Assembly (NCBI GenBank): GCA_030390025.1
Contig: CM059429.1
Location: forward strand, 15,686,001 to 15,750,000
DNA length: 64,000 nucleotides
Reading direction: 5' to 3'
From: Squalus acanthias
Taxonomy: Eukaryota
Positions 4,060-62,805 of this stretch are shown here, piece by piece. Every line of letters starts with the position of its first letter. The stretch's first letter is position 1. A program made the position numbers and the translations under genes. The notes under the pieces were generated by a model. That model did not search any database and was not told where the DNA came from. It saw only the letters and a list, made by a program, of their open reading frames with translations.

Positions 4060-6010
4060 CCTTTTGGATGTGGGTGTCACTGGCATTTATTGCCCATCAC
4101 TATGTTACCCTGAGGGTAGTGGGCTGCCTTCACGAGCCACTGCAGTCCATGTGGTGAAGGTTCTCCTATAATGCTGTTGGGTAGGGAGTTTGAGAACTTT
4201 GACACTGTCTATGAAGGAGCAACAATACATATCCAAGTCAGGATGGTGTGACCTGGAGGTGATGGTGTTCACATGCACTTGCTGCCTTTGTCCTTCTAGG
4301 TGGTGGAGGTCGTGGGTTTGGGAGATGCTGCCAAAGAAGCCTTGGCGTGTTGCTGCAGTATCTCCTGCAGATAGTACCTTCTGTAGCTATATGTTGGTAG
4401 TGGAGGGGGTGGATGTTTAGGCCACTTGAGGTGCTAATCAAGCAGACTCCTTTGTCCTGGATGGTGTCAAACTTCTTGCAGCTGCACCCACCCAGGCAAG
4501 TGGGGAGTATTCCATCACACTCTCATCTTGTGCCTTGTAGTTGCGGAGAGGCTTTGGTGCCTTGGGTGAGCCACTCGAGAGAATAATCAGACTCTGACCT
4601 GCTCTAGTAGTCATGGCATTTGTGGTTTGCCCAATTGTTTTTAGTCAATGGTGACTGCAAGGATGTTGGTGAGGCTCTTGACAATGGTAATGCCATGGGG
4701 AGGTGGTTTGGCACTCATAAATGATTGCTATGTGGCAGCTGTTGCATGAATGTTACTGGCCACTTATCAGCCCAAGGTTGGCTGATGTCCAGGTCTTGCT
4801 GCATGGAGGCATGAACTGCTTTTGCTGTTTAAGGAATTTCAAATGGAGCTGAACAGTGTGCAATTATCAGCAGCAAACAGCCCCACTTCTGACCTTATGA
4901 TGGAGGGAAGGACTTTGGTGAAGTAGTTGAAGCCAGTTAGGACACTGCCCTGAGAAATTCCTGTAGTAATGTCCTGGGTTTGAGATGATTGGCCTCCAAC
5001 AACAAGGCTGTAATAAAGTCTGTAGCCGAGTGGTCCTGGTGGAACCCAAACTGGGAATCGGTGAGCAGGTTGTTGATGAATAAGTGGCGCTGATAACACT
5101 GTTGACTACTACTTCAGTCACTTTGCTGATTGGGAGTAGACTCTGCAGCCCAGCAATTGGACAGGAGGATTTGTCCTCCATTGTGAATAGAACACATCCC
5201 TGGGCAGTTTTCCAGATTGTCTGGTAAATGCCACTGTTGTAGTTGCACTGTTCAAGTTGGCTAGGGGCTTAGCTAGTTCTGGAGCACAGGTCTTCATTAC
5301 AGTGGGGATGTTGTTGATGCTCGTTGCTGTTTCCAATGCACTCAGCTGTTTCTTGATGTCACGTGGAGTGAATTGAATAGACTGGCATCTGTGATGCTGG
5401 GAACCTCGGGAGGAGGCTGTGAAAGTTCATCCGTGTGGTACTTTTGGCTTAAGATGGCTGCAAACACTTCAGCCTTGTTTTATGCACTTGTTTGCTAGAC
5501 TTTGCCATTGTTGAGGATGTTCATGGAGCCGCCTCTTCCAGTTAGTATCTAAATTGTCCATCACCATTCATGATTGTGGCAGGGCTGCAGAGCTTTGACC
5601 TCATCTGTTGGTTGTTGGCTTGCTTAGCTCTGTAGCATGCATGTAGTCCTGTTGTAGCCTCACCAAGTTGGCTCTTCATTTTCGGGTACATCTGGTGCTG
5701 CTTCCAGCAACCTCTTCTACACATTGAAACAGGGTTGATCATGTGGCTTGATGGTGATGGAGTAAGGGATGTACTGTGCCATGAAGTTGCAAATTGCAGT
5801 GGTATACAATTATGCTGCTGATGGCCTGCAGCACCTCATGGTTGCAGTTTTTGAGCTGCTGGATCTGTTAATGTATCCCACTTACTATGGTGGTGGTGCC
5901 ACACCACACGAGGGTGTCCTCGGTGTGAAGATGGGACTTGGTCTGTGCAAGGACTGTGCGCAGTACACTCCAACCACTGCTGTCATGGACAAATTCATCT
6001 GTGACCAGGT
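4060..6010 (-). mobile_element. Degraded CR1-group LINE (family A), RT region and 3' end
   Basis: Broken ORFs ...GISQGSVL...SEVGLFAADNCTLF and MKTCAPELAKPLA. 3' end is homologous to copies at 29631-30665 and 35793-36405. Confidence 0.8.
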
Positions 6011-26240: not shown

Positions 26241-26635
26241 TCAAACTATTGCGGACGGCTCTCTGGTTCCTCTCTCTCCAACGATGGCTTCAGGGTTTTC
26301 CTGCTGCATCTGAACTACCGTTTCTTCATTGACTCCATCCTCAACATCGCTGCTATCTCCCTCTTCCTCCTCCTCTTCATATTCAGAGGACTCCACTGCT
26401 TCTTGGTGAGATTGGGATTCCGACATGGTACCAAAGGAGTGAGCACTGGTGGAGGCAAGTGACGATCTCAGCAGAGGCGTGTTCTCGGAGGCATCATCGT
26501 TTTCTTCGTGGCTGCTGTCTACATCATCAGTTTCTGAATCAGATTCTCCCTGAGATGCTACCACCTTCTGTTTGCAGACAGGGCAGGTCTTCTTTGTTCT
26601 AGTCAGCCACGGGTCCACACATTTACAGTGGTATG
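26241..26635 (-). CDS. RNF13: E3 ubiquitin ligase RNF13, last coding exon
   Basis: Acceptor cccag, then (A)YHCKCVDPWLTRTKKTCPVCKQKVV...ENTPLL...SAHSFG...SSEYEEE. Second half of the RING-H2 plus the RNF13-type acidic tail; adjacency to PFN2 as in human supports RNF13 over RNF167. Confidence 0.95.
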
Positions 26636-27326
26636 CTGGGTACATAAAAGAGAGGGAACCAAAAAAAAATGTATTTAAACAGTATGAAATTTGCACCCCT
26701 CAATGTTATTTGGAAGTTCTGCAAAAAAATTAAACATATATATCCTTCAGCCTACTGTTAATTCAGCTGACAGAAAGGCTCGTGTGGAACATAAACACTG
26801 ACATAGACCTGTTGGGCTGAATGGCCTGTTAGTGCTCCCACCTGTACACTGGAACATTACATCCTCATCATCAAAAGCCAGTTAACAATACTTAACATGT
26901 TTTTTCTATTTCCTTTTTACTTGTTTTTTTTAAATTAAACGGACATAGATTGAAGACTTGACCTTAAAAGTAGGTACTGCCTCAATAGCAGGAGGAATCT
27001 GAACAGAGAGTACTGAAATATAAATTGCAGAAATATAATTTACGTTTGGTCATTAATTCAGCTGCATCCCATGGTCAATCCCAAGGAACAATTTACATTT
27101 TGTTTAAAAAACGAACATTTTGGATCTTCAGTTTTATTTTTAAAAAGTGGTTCATGATGTTACTGCTTAAATATTATTAAAACTTAAGCAAAGGCAACTG
27201 GGTAGGTGCGAGAAAGAATCTTGTAAATCTGGTCACGCAAAGCACATTAAAAACATTTTTACATTCAGTACAAGCACGGCTGTATAAATGAGAGTTTGGT
27301 TTGACCTGGAGTCATAAAATCTTAAC

Positions 27327-28300
27327 TATGGGAGCACGAGATGGGTAAAGAGGAAACAATGGGAGCACGAGACGGATAAAGAGAGGAAACAATGGGAGCA
27401 CGAGACGGATAAAGAGAGGAAACAATGGGAGCACGAGACGGATAAAGAGAGGATACAATGGGAGCACGAGACGGATAAAGAGAGGAAACAATGGGAGCAC
27501 GAGACGGATAAAGAGAGGATACAATGGGAGCACGAGACGGATAAAGAGAGGAAACAATGGGAGCACGAGACGGGTAAAGAGAGGAAACAATGGGAGCACG
27601 AGACGGATAAAGAGGAAACAATGGGAGCACGAGACGGGTAAAGAGAGGATACAATGGGAGCACGAGACGGGTAAAGAGAGGATACAATGGGAGCACGAGA
27701 TGGGTAAAGAGAGGATACAATGGGAGCACGAGACGGGTAAAGAGAGGATACAATGGGAGCACGAGACGGATAAAGAGAGGAAACAATGGGAGCACGAGAC
27801 GGGTAAAGAGGAAACAATGGGAGCACGAGACGGATAAAGAGAGGAAACAATGGGAGCACGAGACGGGTAAAGAGAGGAAACAATGGGAGCACGAGACGGA
27901 TAAAGAGAGGAAACAATGGGAGCACGAGACGGGTAAAGAGAGGAAACAATGGGAGCACGAGACGGGTAAAGAAAGGAAACAATGGGAGCACGAGACGGGT
28001 AAAGAGAGGAAACAATGGGAGCACGAGATGGATAAAGAGGAAACAATGGGAGCACGAGACGGGTAAAGAGAGGATACAATGGGAGCACGAGACGGATAAA
28101 GAGAGAACAATGGGAGCACGAGACGGGTAAAGAGAGGAAACAATGGGAGCACGAGACGGGTAAAGAGAGGAAACAATGGGAGCACGAGACGGGTAAAGAG
28201 AGGAAACAATGGGAGCACGAGATGGATAAAGAGGAAACAATGGGAGCACGAGACGGATAAAGAGAGAACAATGGGAGCACGAGATGGGTAAAGAGGAAAC
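27327..28300. repeat. Minisatellite, 33-bp unit, about 30 copies
   Basis: Unit GGGAGCACGAGACGG(G/A)TAAAGAGAGGA(A/T)ACAAT, with shorter 30-31-bp variants. Confidence 0.97.
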
Positions 28301-28455
28301 AGAAATACAGCATGCAGGATGGTATTTTTAATTGTTTTGTATTTTGATGTCTATACAAGTGAAGAAGGCTGGGGAAGAAGCCAATCTAATATCGGTGTGT
28401 TGAAAGTTAAACTTACCTAATTTGCTTGTTACAGGATGGAGAAGTATTTGCTTAC

Positions 28456-28536
28456 CATGTGAACAGGGCAGGATGCGAAGCTTGTCACCTTCTTCATACT
28501 CATCCAGACAAATTGCGCACACCTCATATTCATCAC
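28456..28536 (-). CDS. RNF13: RNF13 penultimate exon (first half of RING-H2)
   Basis: tgcag|GT GAT GAA...TCA CAT G|gtaag; 81 bp; (G)[26 protein letters not shown]; phase compatible with the last exon. Confidence 0.95.
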
Positions 28537-29033
28537 CTGCAGCAACACAAAGGAACGGTTATACTTTGCTGCTCTAATGATGACATGCTACTTATGCAAG
28601 GCTATTTGAACATGAGGTATTGTGCCATTATTATATTAAAAATGTCTGAATAACAACTAATAGGCATTAGACCGTCAACAGGATTTATTTAACAAGTTGA
28701 GTGACAATCTGTTTATACAGCAGGTCCTCTCTTGGGGCACAATGAATAGAACCAGACAGCGCACGGCTGACATTTAATCTCTAGGACTGAGAATTGCAAG
28801 CTAGCAGATACCTCAGCTCCTTGCTTGTGTGTATGACAAAAGAATCACTTATGTAAATAGCGGGTTTGCCACACTTAAAGGGCCAGGCCTTGCTGGCTCT
28901 ACTAACAATACAGAAATATTTGACACTCTAATTGTTCTCCGCTGGCCATTTACCAGACTCGGCAAAAGACAAAAAACTCTTTTTGGGGGGAAAAAAAATG
29001 TACAAAATATATTTCTAAGTCTTCAATTGTGAA

Positions 29034-40440: not shown

Positions 40441-40552
40441 GTACACATTAAATTACACATGTCGATGTGGTTCTTCAGCTGTCAGTGTGCTTGTAGCTTC
40501 GACTTATATTAACATTTACACTGCACGATTAATGATTACAATGTCATGACTG

Positions 40553-42394
40553 CAGTAATGTCAACACCACCATCTCATAAATCATGAGACAAACTCTTAA
40601 AAAATCATGAAATAAAGTAAGAAATCACGAGTTGCTATTTTGTTCCAAACATAAACCAACACAGATAGACAGTTCGTTTATAAACCTCATTAGTGGCTTT
40701 ATTTAATCTCTAACAGGTCACAGTTCTTTACAAAAACTGCATCTGAAAATGCTTTACAAAGAACTTTTTTAAAAATCCTACCCGTTCTCACCACGCATCT
40801 CTGTTTAAGGTTCTGATGACTAATAGAAATTAATTATACAATTAAGCATATATGTATTTATTATTTTTGTTTTACTTACTTAATGTAAGAGCAGAAAGGT
40901 GTGTGGATTCGATCCCTGGCCTAGGCGGAGTTACCAGGTCTGAGCTAGGGTGGCAGTGAGTAGCGATGCTACAATTGGTCTCGAAGCCCTTTCCTAAAAT
41001 CTCAACAGGTTACGGCCTTGCAGCAGGCCCAGAGACTGGCAAGTCTCTTTTCTTTCCGACCCCCTTCTCTTCCGCCAAGGCCACATGGCGCGCGTGCACT
41101 CTCTGTTGATGGCGGCAGGCCCCCCTCCCCACCACCGGTCTTTTTCCAACCACGCGACCCGGCCGGCTTCCAACCAGCCGACACAGCCAGGGCCGCAGGG
41201 GGCTCCGGGAGTCCGCACCAGGGGAAAGAAGGAGGGTTGAATTTAAAGGAAGACCGCTGGCTCGTACCTTGGCCCATGCAACGCACGCCGGACTTACTAA
41301 CTTATTTTTCTGTGGCCCTCAGCTCGTTCTTAAACTCCTAGTCTGCTTGAGTCAGAGTCCCTCTATTTCAGTGGTTCCCAAACTTTTTTGTATGTATACA
41401 TTGGTTATTTTAAACACCATACGGGAAAAACAAAAATGGGTTTCTCAAACTGAACGGCGTAAATGCTAAACGCTCTTTCAAAGAATGTATTGTTATCTAA
41501 ACAATGTTTCTTTTCTAGTAAAAAAAAAGGAAAGCAAAACGGGTCAGCTTTACAAGTAAATGGCAGGTAAAATACTAATTTAAGTTAATCGAGCAACCTA
41601 AACAATCAAATTATAGAACAAGAAATATTAAACACATCAACCAATGAAAACATCCTCCTTTATTTGCCCAATTCACAAGCTGTTATACAGCATTGTTTTA
41701 GAATGGAAAGGTCAGTTTGGGCCCTTGCAATGGTCAAGGTCACAAAAAGCGTATCTATTATCAATAATACACTTAATGACATGATTCATTTATTGTTGAT
41801 AGTGGAAAGCTAACAAAATGTATTACAGACCATAATTTCATGTGCTATAATTAACATCTGGTTCATATATCCTATTTACTTGGATTTTATGTTGTTTTAT
41901 CCTTCGTAATTTTGGATTTAACAGCCGTTTTCTTGTAGATTCCTAATCTTCTCTTGACAACCAAAAACAATGTTACCTTAGGATGAACCTTTGAAATAGT
42001 TTGTCAGAAAAATGTGCCAATTCTTTTCTGGTGCACAATGCAAACTTCCAAACCCTTGGACCAAGCAAACCCAGACTAGGATCCCATTCGAGCGCGTGCA
42101 CAGGTGAATGGTGTGAAGCAGTGCATTGCGGCAAACACAGTTCTCGCCAAGCCGGAATTGCGCAGCCCCGGATGGCGTTACGGTGAGAATGGTACTACAA
42201 CCCTCAGCATGCCCAGTGCGTTGGACTCCTCCGCATAGCGTGGCGGGGCACGCACTTCCGGTTTGCTCAGCGTATCAACAATATTGCAGTCGAAGTTTAA
42301 AATAATGAGTTTTCCTAGGTGCATCGCGAGTTGGGCTAAGTTCTCATTAAAAATCGCGTGCCTCGCGATTAAATCGTGCGAGTTGGCATTACTG
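40553..42394. mobile_element. Non-autonomous TIR DNA transposon (hAT-like termini), copy 1
   Basis: TIR CAGTAATGTCAAC / GTTGGCATTACTG; flanks TGACTG / TTACTG; subterminal AAATCRYGAG-like repeats; left ~100 bp homologous to 61349-61440. Confidence 0.65.
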
Positions 42395-43204
42395 TTACTG
42401 CAAGTTTACCAAGAAATAATTTTGAACTGATTACTGCGAATTTCTACAGCTGCCCCATATTGTTTATAGAAAAAGGACCATGTACCAGCCAGCCCTCACA
42501 TCTACATTATTCGGTGTTGAGTTTTATGATGCATGTTCTACTCTCATTGCCAAGCCGCTTTATAGGAAACTACGCACCAGTCTTACAAGTCTATGGAAAC
42601 AGCATTACTGATGCTAATCAAGAGCTTGATTTCTTTACCCAAGGCACAAGGAGGATTACAGCAGAAACAGATTCATCCCTAGAATATAATCATAGTGGAA
42701 GAAATATATCTGTACACTCAGTGTGTCTCATTCAAGGCAAGATGCTTTCAAGCAGCCAGGAATAGACACATTCTATTACATTTTTCTTCTCCCTACACCT
42801 CCCCTTTCCCTGAGTTTAGGATTCTACACTAGTGACATCATGAAGGAGAGAGACTGCATATGTGAAAGAACTGCCATTCAAGATGTCCCGCAAACAGAAT
42901 ACCTTTCCATCAATTGGTAACACTATAATGGCGAGGAACACTGAAATGCGAATGAAGAGCAAATTACTCCAATTTTACTCTTGTTTTACACCTCATTCAA
43001 ATCCCTTCTTTGAGACTTTACGCACCGTTTCAGATGTTATATTCTGCTCATTAGTCAGTACATTAGATTTACCTCGTTTATGCCAGGTACCCATCACAAA
43101 AATTCACATCTTACTGGTCCTTTCTTACTTGCATTCAATTCAGAATGGGACCCTTCCACTATTTCCCATGAATTCCTGAGTCCAAGGTTTACTGCGACAT
43201 GCCA

Positions 43205-61348: not shown

Positions 61349-62805
61349 CAGTATTGCCAACCCAACATAAATCAGGAGACAAACTCTTAAAAATCATGAG
61401 ATTTGGTATAGAAATCATGAGTTGCTATTTTTTTCCAACCCGACCCCTCGGGATCTTTGCTCCCGGACAGGAAGCGTATTCGGCTGTCACTAACTGATTA
61501 CTGACATAAGAAATAGGAGCAGGAGTAGGTGGATCGGTGGTAACAACAGAAAACGCTGGAAAAACTCAGCAGGCCAGGCAGCATCCGTGGAGAGAGAAAC
61601 AGAGTTAACGTTTCAGGTCGAAGACCTTTCGTCAGAACTGGAAAAAAAGCAGGAAATGAAATAGATTTAAAGCAAGTGTAAAGCTGGGAAAAGGGGGAGG
61701 GGAGGTGGATCGGTGGCCCCGCTGTTGCGTCACTTGCAGGCCGGCCTCGTTCTTCTTTTGACCATTACTCTTTCCGGAACATAAAACATCTTCTCTTCAT
61801 CTACCCTATCAAACCCCTTCACAATTTTAAAGACCTCTATTAGATCATCCCTCAAGCCTTCTCTTTTGTGTTGTTTGTCCGCCACTTTAAACCCTGTGGA
61901 TTCAAATTTTCATGAAAACCAAAATTCCTCTTAATGTATTGCATGGCTAATGATTTCTTTTCCAGTTCCTATCTTAAATGTGGCTTGTGGAATTGGTGCC
62001 TGACAGGACCCAAGACTAGAGGCCGACGTTATTTGGAGGGACACCAAGTTTCCTGAAGGGAGCAGTAGGAAAGTGCACCACTTGGGCCCTGGCTTTCTGC
62101 GGTGCACAAAAGATCTCCATGGAGTTGCCTTGTAAAAGTTGCTGAGGTCGGGCTGACCGGTTTAACACCCAGAGCACTCCACTCAAAGAAAAGTGTGCGC
62201 ACAGCAAGACCGTGTACTGGAATAATCGGCGCCCCACCCGGTGCTTGTCCCCCGCCCTGGGTTCCTGATCTCGGCAGTGGGTTCAGTTTCTTTTGTAACA
62301 TTACGTAGCTTTGCTCAGATTTGTGCTAATTCTGCTCTCACCTACTTCCAAGTCCAGTTTGCCTGTCCCAGGAACAAAGGGAAAGTAGTAGTCTCCCCAG
62401 GCTGTGCTGATGCACCATCTGTGGGTTGATGTTCAAATGGTTTAGTACATTTGGTCCAGTGCTGCTGGGGGTCAGAGCCTTCACCCATCCTCGGCTCCTT
62501 CGCTCCGCTAGCCGCTTTGCGCTGCCTCTCCGTTACCACGGCAACCCTGCAGAAGGCGCCAGATATCACAAGATCTCTTGACATTCACGAGGAGGAGGAG
62601 GAAGGGGTCCAAGGTCACAGCCAATCGATGTAACGGACCGCGGTGGAACCCAACGGATGTTATGAAAGCCCTCTAAACCTGGTATTTTTTGCACATGTGC
62701 AAATCAGTATATTCCCCCCCCCCCCCCCAAAAATTCCGAGATTTAAGTGTTCCATCGCACGAGATACTTTATTTCACTACGAAATCGCGAGAAATGGCAA
62801 TACGG
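61349..62805. mobile_element. Non-autonomous TIR DNA transposon (hAT-like termini), copy 2
   Basis: TIR CAGTATTGCCA / TGGCAATACGG; flanks TAAGAG / GAAGAG; host CR1 sequence appears to resume after it. Confidence 0.65.
61541..61702 (-). mobile_element. PLE pLTR with hammerhead motif (61603-61639)
   Basis: Reverse complement AGTT CTGACGA A AGGTC TTC GACCT GAA ACGT T AACT; TSD AGGTGGATCGGTGG at 61527-40 and 61703-16. Confidence 0.8.

Follow-up and report, generated by a model that had tools for sequence, protein, structure and literature searches.

The window analyzed in the present study, a 64,000-nucleotide stretch of the Squalus acanthias genome (G000:C5:15686001-15750000), very probably contains an old non-autonomous copy of a transposon family with 6-bp TSDs, which carries approximately 880 bases of the CPEB3/MARCHF5 promoter and was likely mobilized by a hAT6-type transposase encoded elsewhere. 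Searches were run against the 3.7-Gb genome to which the window belongs, and the named proteins closest to its genes are those of sharks. The copy is a TIR element of 1842 bp (40553-42394), the two arms of which are 13 nt long and 92% complementary, as had been claimed in an earlier interpretation of the letters alone (the sequence-only reading). In the window, the TIR pattern gave exactly two perfect matches, which are these arms (40553 and 42382), and one match with a single mismatch at 61349, which belongs to a second copy (copy 2). The near-matching 6-bp flanks, tgactg and ttactg, agree at 5 of 6 positions, and the subterminal repeats of the ATC(G/A)(C/T)GAG type were also found. The interior is unlike that of copy 2, as had been noted: the likeness between them is limited to the left end (approximately 73-90 bp by BLAST). 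The CpG-rich patches that had been highlighted are present (observed/expected ratios of 0.77 at 41001-41500 and 0.93 at 42001-42500), but are not exceptional alone because similar values occur in other 500-bp bins of the window. The features are listed in Table 1. We take the start of module A1 to be a SINE/tRNA B-box-like stretch; the names of the Charlie-like remnant and of the ZNF143/SBS-, ETS-, RFX X-box-, and CCAAT-like motifs in the table are likewise our assumptions.

Table 1. Features of the window (position 1 is its first letter)
Feature	Position	Strand	Basis
Host RNF13, last two coding exons	26244..28537 (26244-26687 and 28454-28537)	-	protein match
Left TSD, 6 bp, tgactg	40547..40552	.	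flank letters and family-wide 6-bp TSD
Left TIR, 13 bp	40553..40565	+	inverted-repeat and TIR pattern search
Family-wide left arm with subterminal ATCATGAG-type repeats	40553..40797	+	genome-wide matches
Module A1, common to several subfamilies	40823..41127	+	genome search and module map
Module A2, first CpG-rich patch	41131..41368	+	genome search
21-bp remnant of a presumed Charlie-like hAT end	41369..41389	+	comparison with longer relative
Captured copy of the CPEB3/MARCHF5 head-to-head promoter, ~880 bp, MARCHF5 orientation	41390..42272	+	donor match
Presumed ZNF143/SBS-like motif, decayed	42194..42213	+	donor comparison
Presumed ETS-like site CACTTCCGG	42253..42261	+	copy alignment
Right arm with CpG-rich subterminal TCGCGA repeats; right TIR at 42382-42394	42273..42394	+	genome and copy alignments
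Right TSD, 6 bp, ttactg	42395..42400	.	flank letters
Copy 2, TSD taagag/gaagag, different interior	61349..62805	+	pattern and flank comparison
Copy-2 cargo, DNA just past the BMS1 stop codon	61909..62455	+	match to G000:C23:28746716-28747427
Copy-2 cargo with presumed RFX X-box and CCAAT-like motifs	62489..62643	+	candidate donor G000:C4:64734709-64735533

The window element and copy 2 are both located within one RNF13 intron of approximately 68 kb, with the next exon upstream at C5:15783011-15783115. The insertion in this intron is also present in organisms B, E, and F, the contigs of which span its junctions at 3-9% divergence; an empty site was not seen among these three. Since four organisms carry it, the insertion is old and fixed. 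Contigs of X11, one of two runs guessed to be RNA (X10 and X11), did not extend over the interior that is unique to the window copy, which is not evidence of silence. Elsewhere in this gene, a tandem repeat array at 27312-28385, between the last two RNF13 exons, gives rise to long low-complexity ORFs.

A search for a TIR-free donor promoter, as the sequence-only reading had proposed, located one on another contig, between CPEB3 and MARCHF5 (G000:C14:34972152-34973072). The match, with 82.7% identity and 10.9% substitutions, covers window positions 41405-42272 of the captured stretch (41390-42272). A TIR or arm was not found within 10 kb of this donor or seen across the surrounding 78 kb. The donor is located 1.35 kb upstream of the first coding exon of CPEB3 (minus strand, 98% to shark CPEB3), for which the protein atlas gave no usable match, and the match stops approximately 360 bp before the ATG of MARCHF5 (plus strand). 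The short exon 1 of MARCHF5 matches shark MARCHF5 N-termini, and the RING exon lies 24 kb further; a guessed-RNA contig covers positions 5297-5486 of the donor locus and then the RING exon, with exon 1 spliced to it. Another such contig starts at 5051, close to position 5072, where the captured stretch ends; contigs of this type cannot fix a start. In organisms B and F, the capture junction at the donor is bridged by single contigs, with approximately 2% and 7% substitutions. We also observed a low-depth guessed-RNA contig at L062:3780-3983, a part of the donor that is also in a longer element copy and is possibly a CPEB3 5' exon. The interior thus maps to a host promoter and not to the UTR of an autonomous transposon, one of two alternatives that the sequence-only reading had itself raised.

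The proven donor accounts for the right-hand CpG patch only. A donor was not found for the first patch (modules A1 and A2, 40823-41368): the best 40 of 143 candidates scored for A1 included no arm-free locus with gene context, and the 18 of 18 candidates scored for A2 were all at sites of element arms or other element modules.

A 31-nt left-end pattern had 176 exact matches genome-wide, and its reversed control had none. The family probably totals more than 1000 ends, which is an estimate made in view of the copies being 5-10% from their majority. We sampled 80 of 100 listed left ends (from the 176 exact matches), taken by position, with 6 kb behind each. A right end was found within 5.9 kb for 42 of the 80. 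Among these paired copies, a 6-bp TSD with at most one mismatch was present in 25 (13 exact) versus 0.32 in shuffles, and a TSD of 7-10 bp was present in none; in another paired set, the 6-bp TSD was present in 15 of 25 versus 0.23 shuffled. Therefore, the 6-bp flanks of the window element reflect a property of the family. For the module map, 6 of 51 paired elements with a TSD below 4/6 were left out. The arms common to the elements measure 90-250 bp on the left and 70-170 bp on the right, and the interiors are modular and often broken by LINEs and SINEs. Minimal elements of 183-300 bp exist (L253, L264, L283, L289, and L322). At seven loci (L044, L072, L147, L157, L162, L275, and L304), internal right ends were identified: additional DNA, common to these loci, lies beyond a short complete element and leads to a second, TSD-carrying right end. 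These compound elements would have arisen via end skipping or self-insertion.

Three side observations concern individual loci. L289 and L290 (G000:C5:62883329 and 62971824), which are 88 kb apart, have the same flanks and are probably a local segmental duplication. L317 (G000:C1:163355795-163361795) contains a frameshifted carnitine O-acyltransferase coding stretch, presumably CPT2-like, 2.4-3.6 kb after the left end; the capture of this stretch is not demonstrated because there is no right end within 5.9 kb. L292:1997-2537 is an exon of the mTERF family that has splice sites and is located 1.9 kb from a left end; it looks like a host gene in an intron of which the element resides.

The TIR of this family starts with CAG, which is hAT-like. 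The length of the TSD makes hAT6 the likely, although unproven, class. A 6-bp TSD defines the hAT6 group of Repbase (PMC12730594). The present family has this TSD and a short TIR. IS3EU elements also have 6-bp TSDs, but their TIRs exceed 30 bp and end in TAYGG..CCRTA (PMC12730594); they were ruled out by the 13-bp TIR starting with CAGTA. The classical hAT groups (Ac, Buster/Charlie, and Tip) have 8-bp TSDs (PMC3942097), a length found in 0 of 42 paired copies, and Helitrons, with neither TIR nor TSD, were rejected because the family has both. An autonomous hAT6 partner would encode a hAT transposase of the Blackjack-related lineage and have the same termini. No transposase was tied to the ends of the family: the 80 sampled loci gave 246 filtered ORFs, and the 140 of these that were scanned against Pfam did not contain a hAT domain, and no hAT-domain match near the listed family ends was present among 150 scored (compared by eye). 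Separately, the genome contains a young hAT family on many contigs, with near-identical open frames of approximately 650 aa, as well as several older hAT groups.

The promoter piece of CPEB3/MARCHF5 is present at approximately 40 places, on many contigs and with different TSDs. A search with the promoter core returned 47 candidates, 40 of which were scored and gave 42 matches, nearly all ending in the right arm. A longer relative at C15:42.556M contains 1.3 kb of the donor preceded by the Charlie-like piece; compared with the window copy, it has approximately 815 further bases at the site of the remnant and approximately 380 more donor bases. The deletion that fused 21 bp of the Charlie-like piece to donor DNA is common to the window copy and the copy at C15:86.13M. 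The other alternative raised by the sequence-only reading, two independent insertions around host intron, fails since the same ends and cargo occur elsewhere with their own TSDs (C9:70.617M and C15:86.13M).

Elements with the same ends carry different interiors from other donors, together with the 6-bp TSD. The genome search with the interior of copy 2 was run without its young SINE, which swamped the matches, and a TIR or arm match was not found in 10 kb at its BMS1 donor locus. The L246/L249 subfamily carries 420 bp that lie 380 bp before the ATG of an exon at C8:61.365M, which we take to be NOL4-like; this donor keeps 17 of 20 CpGs. Pfam, PDB, and an exact look-up returned nothing for this exon, and the protein atlas gave no usable match. 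The cargo of the L014 subfamily is a 980-bp piece of a CpG island at C1:206.021M, which has a splice-donor-like end; this locus is the only one among 12 candidates without adjoining arms or module A. In the L044 subfamily, a module matching C3:173.317M is joined to the MARCHF5 core. The candidate donors on C4 (64.735M) and C3 resemble the copy majority (0.949 and 0.937, respectively) as closely as ordinary copies do, and may be arm-less copies. No gene was named from the ORF listings and no exon was recognized for the C1, C3, and C4 candidates. Further candidates were rejected because arms or TIRs were seen on reading 10 kb (C4:98.89M, C10:68.24M, C5:112.58M, C1:83.70M, C15:60.49M, C13:59.40M, C13:71.07M, and others). 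Three donors are gene-anchored (CPEB3/MARCHF5, BMS1, and NOL4-like), one is probable (C1), and two are doubtful (C3 and C4), and donors on different contigs are joined within single elements. Five of the six are promoter-like, which may point to a bias of capture towards promoters, but CpG-rich modules had been chosen as queries. The proposal that the family captures and moves host promoter fragments holds for the C14 promoter and is supported by the multi-cargo relatives, but does not describe the BMS1 cargo, which is a 3' flank.

The sequence-only reading had listed three motifs typical of promoters in the window copy. The ETS-like site is present as CACTTCCGG and is found in most copies; at this site, the donor of the present genome has CATTTCCGC. 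The ZNF143-like motif is present, but its core differs from the donor, in which it looks intact, at 4 of 18 positions. The GC box GGCGGGG (42242-48) also exists, but is specific to the window copy; the donor and the majority read GGCGGAG. In 27 aligned copies, CpG retention was 0.61 for the cargo versus 0.56 for the arm. The columns of the ZNF143 and ETS motifs ranked at the 19th and 36th percentiles of conservation, no better than neighboring sites. In the window copy, 10 of 17 cargo CpGs remain; with a non-CpG identity of 0.89-0.90, it is among the more diverged copies. Retention of CpGs and motifs above neutral, as expected of a functional promoter, was observed neither for the family nor for the window copy. 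Judging from these patterns, the window copy is most likely a dead passenger without a sign of promoter activity, and most copies similarly look dead, with cargo CpGs decaying like the arms and motifs that are not favored. Most copies would have been methylated after insertion and then decayed neutrally.

A different behavior was observed for one copy on C16 (L408:3906-4837; G000:C16:11016906-11017837). Its MARCHF5 core keeps 17 of 17 CpGs (binomial P 0.0005, 32 copies tested), and its second promoter-type module keeps 22 of 27 (P 0.004). It contains 50 CpGs in 500 bp, and another 50-CpG bin is located 4 kb away; the copy may represent an unmethylated island, or its region may be protected. 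The copy at L409 (C1:83.499M) keeps 15 of 16 ancestral CpGs. We considered the possibility that promoter cargo was selected, through open unmethylated germline chromatin or as new host promoters, and that some copies still function. Cargo of the promoter type is common, in many cases directly adjoining the right arm, and the C16 copy is consistent with this explanation. However, the CpGs and motifs are not retained in excess on average, the window copy is among the more diverged, the bin 4 kb from the C16 copy makes a regional effect possible, and the queries were chosen for CpG richness. We regard the selection of cargo as rather unlikely. A broader scenario, to which we assign a similarly low probability, is a hAT6-like promoter shuffler in sharks that preferentially took up first exons and CpG-island promoters from many genes, combined them in mosaic elements, and gave rise to new unmethylated islands or promoters, some of which, such as the C16 copy, may still be protected from methylation.

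We also weighed the reverse direction, in which the promoter module is native transposon DNA and the CPEB3/MARCHF5 promoter arose from one of its insertions. Of the 20 ancestral CpGs in the 192-bp core, 19 persist in the donor versus 64% in 32 copies, and changes from donor CpG to copy TpG/CpA number 223 versus 38 in the reverse direction, a polarity that holds in 30 of the 32 copies; these counts are not independent because the copies share ancestry. This polarity alone would also arise were the C14 locus an unmethylated copy and is, thus, compatible with the reverse direction. The substitutions in long segments (10.9-12.2% for the donor versus 6-11% for the copies) similarly place the donor at a comparable distance. 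However, the donor has no arm, TIR, or TSD, and a head-to-head Cpeb3-March5 pair exists in mouse (PMC6336207). In the 192-bp promoter core, the donor is outside the spread of copies (86% to the copy majority versus 88.5-98.5% for the copies). Furthermore, at least three gene-anchored loci match different, non-overlapping modules, and the promoter module was present in only 2 of 80 unselected left ends. The reverse direction is, therefore, very improbable, and movement from the host to the element is well supported by CpG polarity together with gene context.

The least probable explanation, that gap filling independent of transposition, or a segmental duplication, brought host DNA between two old ends at this single site, agrees with the origin of most animal Pack-TIRs, which are single-copy (PMC8277862), and may still fit the first capture, but is refuted for amplification by the same cargo and ends at approximately 40 places on many contigs with different TSDs and by the deletion junction of the window copy, which recurs at C15:86.13M with its own TSD.

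Regarding the mechanism of the capture that we favor, an ancestral element may have acquired its copy of the promoter through template switching or gap repair. We infer this step because the donors keep no ends; such capture was similarly argued for Pack-MULEs and multicopy Pack-TIRs (PMC8277862). In later rounds, cargo would have been deleted, swapped, and added, in part when a left end was paired with a right end located further away. We propose such assembly because internal right ends were seen in several subfamilies, and distant-end assembly was modelled for Pack-CACTA (PMC6379663).

The window element shows the hallmarks of multicopy Pack-TIRs: flanking TIRs, an unlinked parental locus (for 41390-42272 only), and several copies with distinct TSDs. 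Similar to multicopy animal Pack-TIRs, it is non-autonomous and has GC-rich cargo from another chromosome with a TIR-free donor. Four multicopy cases were described in vertebrate reference genomes, including Pack-hAT-N8_XT of Xenopus tropicalis, which carries 291 bp of the CAPSL 5' UTR from a single donor at three sites (Tan et al. 2021, PMC8277862); the word "shark" is absent from the accessible main text of that article. In contrast to these vertebrate cases, one promoter is present at approximately 40 places in the shark family, several donors contribute per family and per element, the TSD measures 6 bp, and the family, which is common to at least four organisms, is old. Copy number, the number of donors, and TSD length set it apart from reported vertebrate Pack-TIRs. 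Pack-MULEs (PMC8277862) and Pack-CACTA (Catoni et al. 2019, PMC6379663) likewise captured, merged, and relocated fragments of several loci, and hybrids from the ends of neighboring copies in plants (PMC6379663) fit the internal right ends observed here. However, the present host is a vertebrate, neighboring ends are not left at the shark donors, and a 13-bp TIR with a 6-bp TSD differs from the long TIRs and 9-bp TSDs of MULEs and from CACTA ends. The Helitrons of bats are another vertebrate family that captured the promoters of many genes (15 genes and 4,690 copies, with sequential capture and a 5' bias; Thomas et al. 2014, PMC4224331). They are rolling-circle elements without TIRs or TSDs, whereas the shark family is of the cut-and-paste type and has a lower copy number. 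We did not find a description of this family or of Pack-type capture in sharks in the literature covered, which excluded Repbase Reports and most subscription journals.

Multicopy gene capture by the cut-and-paste transposons of vertebrates has been reported as rare, and one shark family displays the behavior known from plants, namely, several donors, mosaics, tens of copies per cargo, and a large amount of promoter DNA. In shark assemblies, transposon cargo can account for orphan CpG islands and for promoter-like repeats, which need to be interpreted with caution. Moreover, the family offers a natural experiment on whether a moved CpG-island promoter stays unmethylated: approximately 30 aligned core copies of the same age are located in differing neighborhoods, and most of them decayed, while a few did not.
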